DNA of 64,000 bases from Escherichia coli (lineage in GTDB: Bacteria; Pseudomonadota; Gammaproteobacteria; Enterobacterales; Enterobacteriaceae), in NCBI RefSeq assembly GCF_041886205.1, contig NZ_CP169029.1. The stretch is one strand, 5' to 3'. Below, piece by piece: positions 61,800 through 62,035 of this stretch. Made by a program: the position numbers and the translations under genes. Below the pieces are notes generated by a model. It was not told the DNA's origin, made no database searches, and saw nothing but the letters and a program-made list of their open reading frames with translations. Position 1 is the first letter of the stretch; the number at the start of each line of letters is the position of its first letter.

Positions 61800-62035
61800 G
61801 CCGGATGCGGCGTAAACGCCTTATCCGGCCTACGGTTCAGGCACAAGTTTGTAGGCCTGATAAGACGGGTAAGCGTCGCATCAGGCAATGGTGCTCGGAT
61901 GCCGGATGCGGCGTAAACGCCTTATCCGGCCTACGGTTCAGGCACAGGTTTGTAGGCCTGATAAGACGGGTAAGCGTCGCATCAGGCAATGGTGCTCGGA
62001 TGCCGGATGCGGCGTGAACGCCTTATCCGGCCTAC
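61800..62035. repeat. Tandem REP/BIME array, 101-bp period, about 2.3 copies
   Basis: Unit GCCGGATGCGGCGTAAACGCCTTATCCGGCCTACGGTTCAGGCACA(A/G)GTTTGTAGGCCTGATAAGACGGGTAAGCGTCGCATCAGGCAATGGTGCTCGGAT begins at 61800, 61901 and 62002. Confidence 0.75.

Follow-up and report, generated by a model that had tools for sequence, protein, structure and literature searches.

A strain-variable BIME-2 array between the convergent genes copA and ybaQ of Escherichia coli

Background

BIME-2 elements of E. coli combine z2 and y REPs in multiple tandem copies; their short linkers vary between loci and are conserved within a locus, and their copy number differs among strains (PMC3333891). For TnpA(REP), the REP-associated transposase, strand-transfer activity and models of amplification exist. 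The K-12 element REP325 acts as a partly Rho-dependent terminator or attenuator and as an mRNA stabiliser (bioRxiv 10.64898/2026.03.23.713779). According to the same 2026 study, REPs are strongly biased to 3' intergenic regions, expression is higher in convergent gene pairs that carry REPs, and REPs placed between such genes behave as bidirectional terminators or as blocks to decay with a strong dependence on context, while the mRNAs terminated by REPs show no genome-wide difference in half-life. Term-seq data indicate that stem-loops, including REPs, keep PNPase and RNase II from degrading the 3' ends of Rho-terminated RNAs (PMC6061677). In Topo-Seq data, BIME-2 elements hold more gyrase cleavage sites than expected, chiefly within Y REPs, and such sites occur in only a subset of the elements (PMC6379681).

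The array described here lies between the convergent genes copA and ybaQ, and it is an already known kind of element, the reference strain K-12 carrying the same array. The window is the whole stretch of DNA that was analyzed, 64,000 nucleotides of an E. coli genome (RefSeq assembly GCF_041886205.1, contig NZ_CP169029.1), and its best match is E. coli strain WG5 (99.9%).

Structure of the copA-ybaQ array

The copA-ybaQ element is a BIME-2, a locally amplified tandem array of alternating and mutually inverted Y and Z2 palindromes that encodes no protein. It occupies most of the 315-bp gap between the two genes, and K-12 MG1655 has the same 315-bp architecture, its locus lying at 508560-508874. 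TRF detected a tandem repeat at 61799..62036 with a period of 101, 2.4 copies, 98% matches, 0% indels and a score of 462. Exact matches of the Y-REP pattern were found at 61800-61833, 61901-61934 and 62002-62035, and matches of the Z2 pattern on the opposite strand at 61851-61886 and 61952-61987; neither pattern gave a match in 100 dinucleotide-preserving shuffles of the window. The array thus reads Y-S-Z2-l-Y-S-Z2-l-Y, that is, three Y-type and two inverted Z2-type REPs, joined by S linkers of 17 nt and l linkers of 14 nt. These results confirm the earlier note on this DNA, which had reported a 101-bp unit of two inverted REPs repeated about 2.3 times downstream of copA. The features of the locus are as follows (window coordinates; a strand is given where one applies).

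59238..61742, plus strand: copA, copper-exporting P-type ATPase, the upstream convergent gene, whose 3' UTR enters the array (ORF list, RefSeq annotation)
61752..61786: stable hairpin 10 nt past the copA stop, outside the array and shared with REP-less alleles (RNA fold, -21.5 kcal/mol, z -3.9)
61799..62036: complete BIME-2 tandem array of 2.4 units with a 101-bp period (TRF, repeat finder, REP patterns)
61800..61833, plus strand: Y-type REP no. 1, GCCGGATG...CCTAC on the plus strand and the GTAG-5' form on the minus strand (exact pattern match); identical to the Y of REP325, hairpin of -21.5/-20.9 kcal/mol on the two strands
61834..61850: short linker S no. 1, GGTTCAGGCACAAGTTT, with the A/G difference at 61846 (sequence, unit comparison)
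61851..61886, minus strand: Z2-type REP no. 1, inverted relative to Y (pattern match); hairpin of -18.6/-17.5 kcal/mol, two loop bases off the Z2 of REP325
61887..61900: linker l no. 1, AATGGTGCTCGGAT (sequence; a comparable motif lies behind the Z2 at window 25840)
61901..61934, plus strand: Y-type REP no. 2 (pattern match)
61935..61951: short linker S no. 2, G at 61947 (sequence, unit comparison)
61952..61987, minus strand: Z2-type REP no. 2 (pattern match)
61988..62001: linker l no. 2 (sequence)
62002..62035, plus strand: Y-type REP no. 3, terminal, loop G at 62016 (pattern match, unit comparison)
61854..61931, minus strand: Z2-l-Y pair matching Rfam RF02564 naRNA4 at 82 bits (gathering score 59.5)
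61955..62032, minus strand: second Z2-l-Y pair matching RF02564 naRNA4 at 79.9 bits (Rfam)
62058..62399, minus strand: ybaQ, HigA-family antitoxin / HTH regulator, the convergent gene, whose 3' UTR enters the array from the opposite side (Pfam HTH_3, E 7.5e-11; RefSeq annotation)

Direct comparison of the units revealed exactly two differences, 61846A/61947G and 61915A/62016G. The earlier note had the right count and the right second pair, whereas its first pair, 61847/61948, was off by one. It had also named a failure of the units to align as grounds for giving up the repeat; the units do align (98%, no indels).

Two annotated features of K-12 have expected counterparts in this neighbourhood. 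The programmed-frameshift product of copA, a soluble Cu chaperone, is annotated at the copA 5' end in K-12 and is expected at window 59238-59450. The chiX sRNA gene abuts the ybaP end in the K-12 annotation (507204-507287) and is expected by homology at window ~63330-63415.

Classification of the REPs and of the array

All three Y-type copies possess a CTAC foot and an interrupted stem of about -21 kcal/mol; two of them match the Y of REP325 at every base, and the terminal copy carries a single loop change. The Z2-type REPs are 36 nt long, clearly longer than the Z1 at window 47743-47771. As in BIME-2, Y and Z2 alternate in inverse orientation with short linkers and in multiple tandem copies, the units are 98% alike within the locus, the linkers are unlike those of REP325, and alleles form a ladder of 1-5 Y-REPs. 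The features of BIME-1 are missing from the array, which has no Z1, no L linker and no IHF site. Its neighbours are copA and ybaQ/ybaP only, with no tnpA(REP)/RAYT gene beside it; the array is a dispersed BIME and not a REPtron. The reading as a tandem REP/BIME array therefore holds, and comparison with REP325 and with the published definitions types it more narrowly as BIME-2.

Two further REP structures occur in the window. Positions 47673-47771 form a textbook BIME-1 composed of a Y REP (47673-47706), an L linker in which the IHF consensus AATCAATATATTG occupies 47719-47731, and an inverted Z1 (47743-47771). Positions 25753-25840 form a single pair of Y and inverted Z2, equal to one BIME-2-like unit, and the motif behind its Z2, TGGTGCACCGAT, is similar to linker l in the copA array.

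Matches to RF02564 were obtained on both strands of the array, the plus strand scoring 63-64 bits against 82 and 79.9 bits on the minus strand. The RF02564 model is in effect one BIME-2 unit, so that a match to it records family resemblance rather than function and does not mark a validated sRNA gene. It is highly improbable that the array is a gene for naRNA4-like RNAs, whose processed Z2-Y transcripts would bind HU, bridge REP cruciforms and condense the chromosome. This proposal can draw on the two Z2-l-Y pairs above the gathering score, on a weaker match at 61755-61830, and on the derivation of the Rfam model from REP325 (PMC4550694), whose units are built in the same way. However, a model that is effectively a BIME-2 unit matches either strand, and the linkers of the copA array differ from those of naRNA4. 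Moreover, a 2026 study that includes an original author found no measurable nucleoid compaction by REP325 or naRNAs, no stable HU-DNA-RNA ternary complex and no long-range REP-REP contacts (bioRxiv 10.64898/2026.03.23.713779), and after this re-examination the naRNA4/HU reading of the nucleoid is weak. Rfam 'naRNA4' matches at this locus are best read as 'BIME-2 unit'.

Open reading frames over the array

Several ORFs overlap the array, and the possibility that one or more of them (61751..62017, 61888..62292, and 61840..61989 on the minus strand) encode real small proteins can be dismissed with near certainty. Such ORFs exist mechanically, and the minus-strand ORF at 61840-61989 (50 aa, all REP and linker) has several GenBank deposits as 'mtlD protein', which is a legacy REP-ORF misannotation. 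Against a coding role, the five ORFs over the array that were tested have no supported Pfam match, the sole match being zf-CGNR at 13.4 bits (E 0.067), below the 24-bit cut-off. By exact-sequence look-up, the two ORFs named in the earlier note are absent from a collection of 15 billion proteins, and RefSeq/PGAP annotates no CDS in the copA-ybaQ gap in any genome inspected.

Because 101 is not divisible by 3, the ORF set also shifts as units are added or removed. The 134-aa ORF requires at least three Y-REPs; at two Y-REPs it is fused with the 88-aa ORF into a 146-aa ORF, at one Y-REP a 98-aa ORF takes its place, and at zero, in the 57-bp allele, it is absent. Longer arrays contain additional copies of the 50-aa and 76-aa ORFs. 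The tail of the 134-aa ORF is merely the antisense of ybaQ. Coding potential of the array was therefore rejected: there is no reading frame that persists across alleles, no homologue support beyond the 'mtlD protein' misannotation, and no annotation as a gene. Independent coding conservation, which the earlier note regarded as evidence that would overturn its view, was not seen, as the ORFs lack family support and are unstable across alleles.

That note was right that 61751..62017 and 61888..62292 are not genes, but it had placed them entirely within the repeat, whereas the former starts 48 nt left of the array and the latter extends 256 nt beyond the repeat, antisense to ybaQ. Its description of the array as a source of spurious ORFs is borne out by the deposited 'mtlD protein' and not by its own two ORFs, which were never deposited. 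The 90%-identity cluster of the 'mtlD protein' has a 568-aa representative (an ENA record) and a 576-aa member from Planctomycetota; these odd long members are probably a clustering artefact. Masking the array as a REP/BIME-2 repeat would keep gene callers from emitting ORFs from it.

Copy-number variation in E. coli

The copA-ybaQ intergenic lengths in complete E. coli genomes are 57, 113, 214, 315, 416 and 517 bp, which correspond to 0-5 Y-REPs: no REP (57 bp), Y (113 bp), Y-Z2-Y (214 bp), (Y-Z2)2-Y (315 bp), (Y-Z2)3-Y (416 bp) and (Y-Z2)4-Y (517 bp). Strain-variable copy number, anticipated in the earlier note, is thereby established. We took a systematic sample of 60 out of 5421 matching genomes, using a flank-only query that avoids REP noise. 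The collection is biased to laboratory and outbreak strains, and as rough proportions only, the sample includes 14 genomes with the 57-bp allele, 12 with 113 bp, 14 with 214 bp, 11 with 315 bp, 2 with 416 bp, and 7 without an adjacent ybaQ. About a quarter of the sampled genomes thus possess no REP at this site. The 517-bp allele came from a first search and lies outside the 60-genome sample.

Two unit variants, 48A/70G and 48G/70C, follow each other in an order that differs between strains; the internal variants are arranged differently in K-12, the window, E. coli B and KMi029. The terminal Y, in turn, has a loop G (GTGAAC) in every multi-unit allele examined (62016 in the window; L001, L002, L005, L010, L013), and the internal Ys have A. 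Judged from the sequences, shuffled internal variants together with a fixed terminal G are the pattern that unequal exchange among internal units would leave.

The main rival to a functional interpretation is that the array is a selectively neutral variable-number repeat, selfish or a by-product. REP/BIME mobility would have introduced it long ago, recombination or TnpA(REP) would keep its unit number changing, and it would do nothing specific to this locus for copA or ybaQ. Neutrality is made plausible by how common the 0-unit allele is, and we consider it a real possibility, albeit the less probable one. It is favoured by the fact that every copy number from 0 to 4 Y-REPs is either common or represented among the 60 sampled genomes, and by the shuffling of unit order and variants between strains.

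No IS insertion was found in the array among the 60 sampled genomes, so the suggestion of the earlier note that such arrays serve as IS targets finds no example at this locus. Genomes that at first appeared to have copA only were considered as candidate IS insertions and rejected as such; they are ybaQ-less haplotypes.

Age of the site and neighbouring haplotypes

Outside E. coli, the copA-ybaQ site carries Y-Z2 and a truncated Y in E. whittamii, Y and a degenerate Z2 in E. albertii, and one Y adjoining ybaQ in the cryptic-clade Escherichia MOD1-EC7003. Since these outgroups have REPs at the exact site, the REP-bearing state is older than E. coli, and the 57-bp allele without REPs is probably either a derived form or an import. 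The maintenance of REPs at this exact site since before the split of E. coli, E. albertii and E. whittamii speaks against neutrality.

Two haplotypes were observed around window 62400-62536, one REP-less and toxin-keeping, the other REP-bearing and toxin-lacking, the latter including K-12. A RelE/ParE (HigB-like) toxin gene lies beside ybaQ in all four REP-less alleles examined (L004, L014, L015, L016). An orphan ybaQ with no toxin gene is present in 7/7 REP-bearing alleles (the window together with L001, L002, L003, L005, L013 and L017, K-12 among them).

In ∼12% of the sampled genomes (7/60), ybaQ is missing after copA. One class of ybaQ-less genomes shows a clean deletion of ybaQ in a REP-less background (171 bp; L006:2844-3014). 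Another class has an unrelated GC-rich segment of 428 bp (L011:2744-3171, L012:2744-3171), whose right end resembles the E. albertii flank.

Folding, terminators and protein-binding sites

The RNA of 61740-62060 folds far better than shuffled sequences on both strands (z -7.8 each), and the single REPs of the array form interrupted hairpins of -17.5 to -21.5 kcal/mol on either strand. A scan for intrinsic terminators over 61500-62700 gave only one terminator-like site, inside copA (61605-61618), and none in the intergenic region, either after copA or after ybaQ; no U-tract follows any hairpin of the array. The intergenic region thus lacks the features of an intrinsic terminator, and any termination at the array would be of the Rho-assisted or roadblock type. 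The lack of any canonical terminator in REP-bearing alleles is a further point against a neutral repeat. A promoter scan of the copA-ybaQ gap gave no promoter-like site.

A modest C-over-G bias (0.12-0.18 per 60 nt) was detected in the copA-sense RNA just past the array (window 62057-62180, plus strand). It gives a weak hint of a possible Rho loading region; as a candidate Rho loading site the segment was considered, and a bias of this size is not decisive. An IHF site in the array was likewise considered and rejected, as the IHF consensus WATCAANNNNTTR has no match inside 61743-62057. IHF binding, which the earlier note had listed for such arrays, is a property of the BIME-1 L linker and not of BIME-2.

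The hairpin at 61752-61786 is conserved in all alleles, including the REP-less ones, and in the outgroups; the 57-bp allele L004 retains the same hairpin at -24 kcal/mol. A strong hairpin of its own in the REP-less allele is in line with the neutral interpretation of the REPs. Leftward of the array, to about 61771, the repeat finder reported weak similarity in the 101-nt register (83-88%), and the weaker naRNA4 match at 61755-61830 scored 41.6 bits. A decayed sixth REP was considered on these grounds and rejected: the hairpin is intact in REP-less alleles and so does not count as a decayed unit of the array, though it may be a REP-like hairpin of older date.

REPs located within ~15 nt of a stop codon can reportedly stall terminating ribosomes, as attributed to Liang, Rudd and Deutscher (2015). 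The 61752-61786 hairpin starts only 10 nt behind the copA stop codon and, unlike the ribosome-stalling REPs, is not a REP.

Proposed function

The absence of a canonical terminator and the equal stability of the hairpins on both strands lead us to a two-way reading. By analogy with described REPs, the array most likely protects the 3' ends of copA and ybaQ transcripts and attenuates read-through in both directions, and it is a candidate gyrase site. RNA from either gene would form a row of hairpins of -17 to -21 kcal/mol in the array. These hairpins would block 3'-to-5' exonucleases, leaving stable 3' ends on both mRNAs, and would dampen transcription that reads through into the opposite gene's antisense, in part with the help of Rho. 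At the DNA level, the Y REPs may provide preferred gyrase cleavage sites. Unit number would change through recombination or slippage involving the 101-bp direct repeats, or through the action of TnpA(REP). We have high confidence in this explanation taken as a whole: the sequences show the composition, the lack of coding capacity, the hairpin potential and the copy-number variation, and the functional part is drawn by inference from the family.

Published observations bear on the neutral alternative in both directions. The high context dependence of REP effects and the lack of a general half-life effect agree with it, but the bias of REPs to 3' intergenic regions and the higher expression of REP-bearing convergent pairs do not (bioRxiv 10.64898/2026.03.23.713779). 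Another alternative places the primary role at the DNA level, with the array acting as a strong gyrase site or topological insulator that removes positive supercoils between convergent copA and ybaQ. We regard this as unlikely. Cleavage sites are over-represented in BIME-2, lie mostly in Y REPs and persist without transcription (PMC6379681), and here three Y REPs stand between convergent genes. However, only a subset of BIME-2 is cleaved, and the locus is not named in the text of that study or in the supplements examined; alleles with no REP are common; and ybaQ is small and probably weakly expressed.

The texts and some supplements of the naRNA4, 2026 REP, Topo-Seq, Term-seq and RepRanger papers contain nothing useful on the copA/ybaQ locus; the lone copA row in those supplements is a differential expression entry (log2 fold change -0.70, adjusted p 0.41).

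Returning to the two-way protector and attenuator, the REP-less state of about a quarter of genomes and the drift from 0 to 5 copies imply that any function of the array is dispensable or replaceable. It can be speculated, though we think it improbable, that the number of 101-bp units is a heritable and reversible 'dial' on copA and/or ybaQ mRNA, acting via 3'-end protection or read-through and differing by lineage, with the REP-bearing state coupled to loss of the HigB-like toxin. The 101-bp ladder (0-5 Y-REPs) offers a convenient natural allelic series for relating REP copy number to the 3' ends of copA, an inducible gene that is well studied, and possibly a minor typing marker. Beyond good annotation practice, the array matters little.

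Comparison with known systems

Among the described systems, the copA array is closest to the BIME-2 of E. coli (Gilson/Bachellier classification; Ton-Hoang et al. 2012, PMC3333891). It shares with this family the alternating inverted Y and Z2 REPs, the GTAG/CTAC feet, the imperfect stems, the short S and l linkers, the near-identical tandem units, the strain-variable copy number and the extragenic position at gene 3' ends. There is no essential difference from the family, and the linkers are locus specific as the family predicts. With 5 REPs, the array is smaller than the largest BIME-2 of K-12, which has up to 12.

REP325, located between yjdM and yjdN in K-12 and the source of the naRNA4 definition, has the same Z2-l-Y unit design, an identical Y, and a Z2 that differs by two loop bases. 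Its period is 100 bp with 5.8 units, compared with 101 bp and 2.4 units in the copA array, and its 12 hairpins lie between tandem genes of one operon, whereas the 5 hairpins of the copA array lie between convergent genes. The l and S/U linkers of the two arrays differ in sequence. A similar period combined with different linkers fits the prediction of local amplification.

BIME-1 (RIP/RIB) elements likewise pair a Y REP with an inverted second REP, but they are single copy, contain Z1 and bear an IHF site in a long L linker; the copA array shows none of these features. Intrinsic bidirectional terminators resemble the array in having GC-rich hairpins between converging units that can be read on both strands; they differ from it in the U-tract that follows the hairpin.
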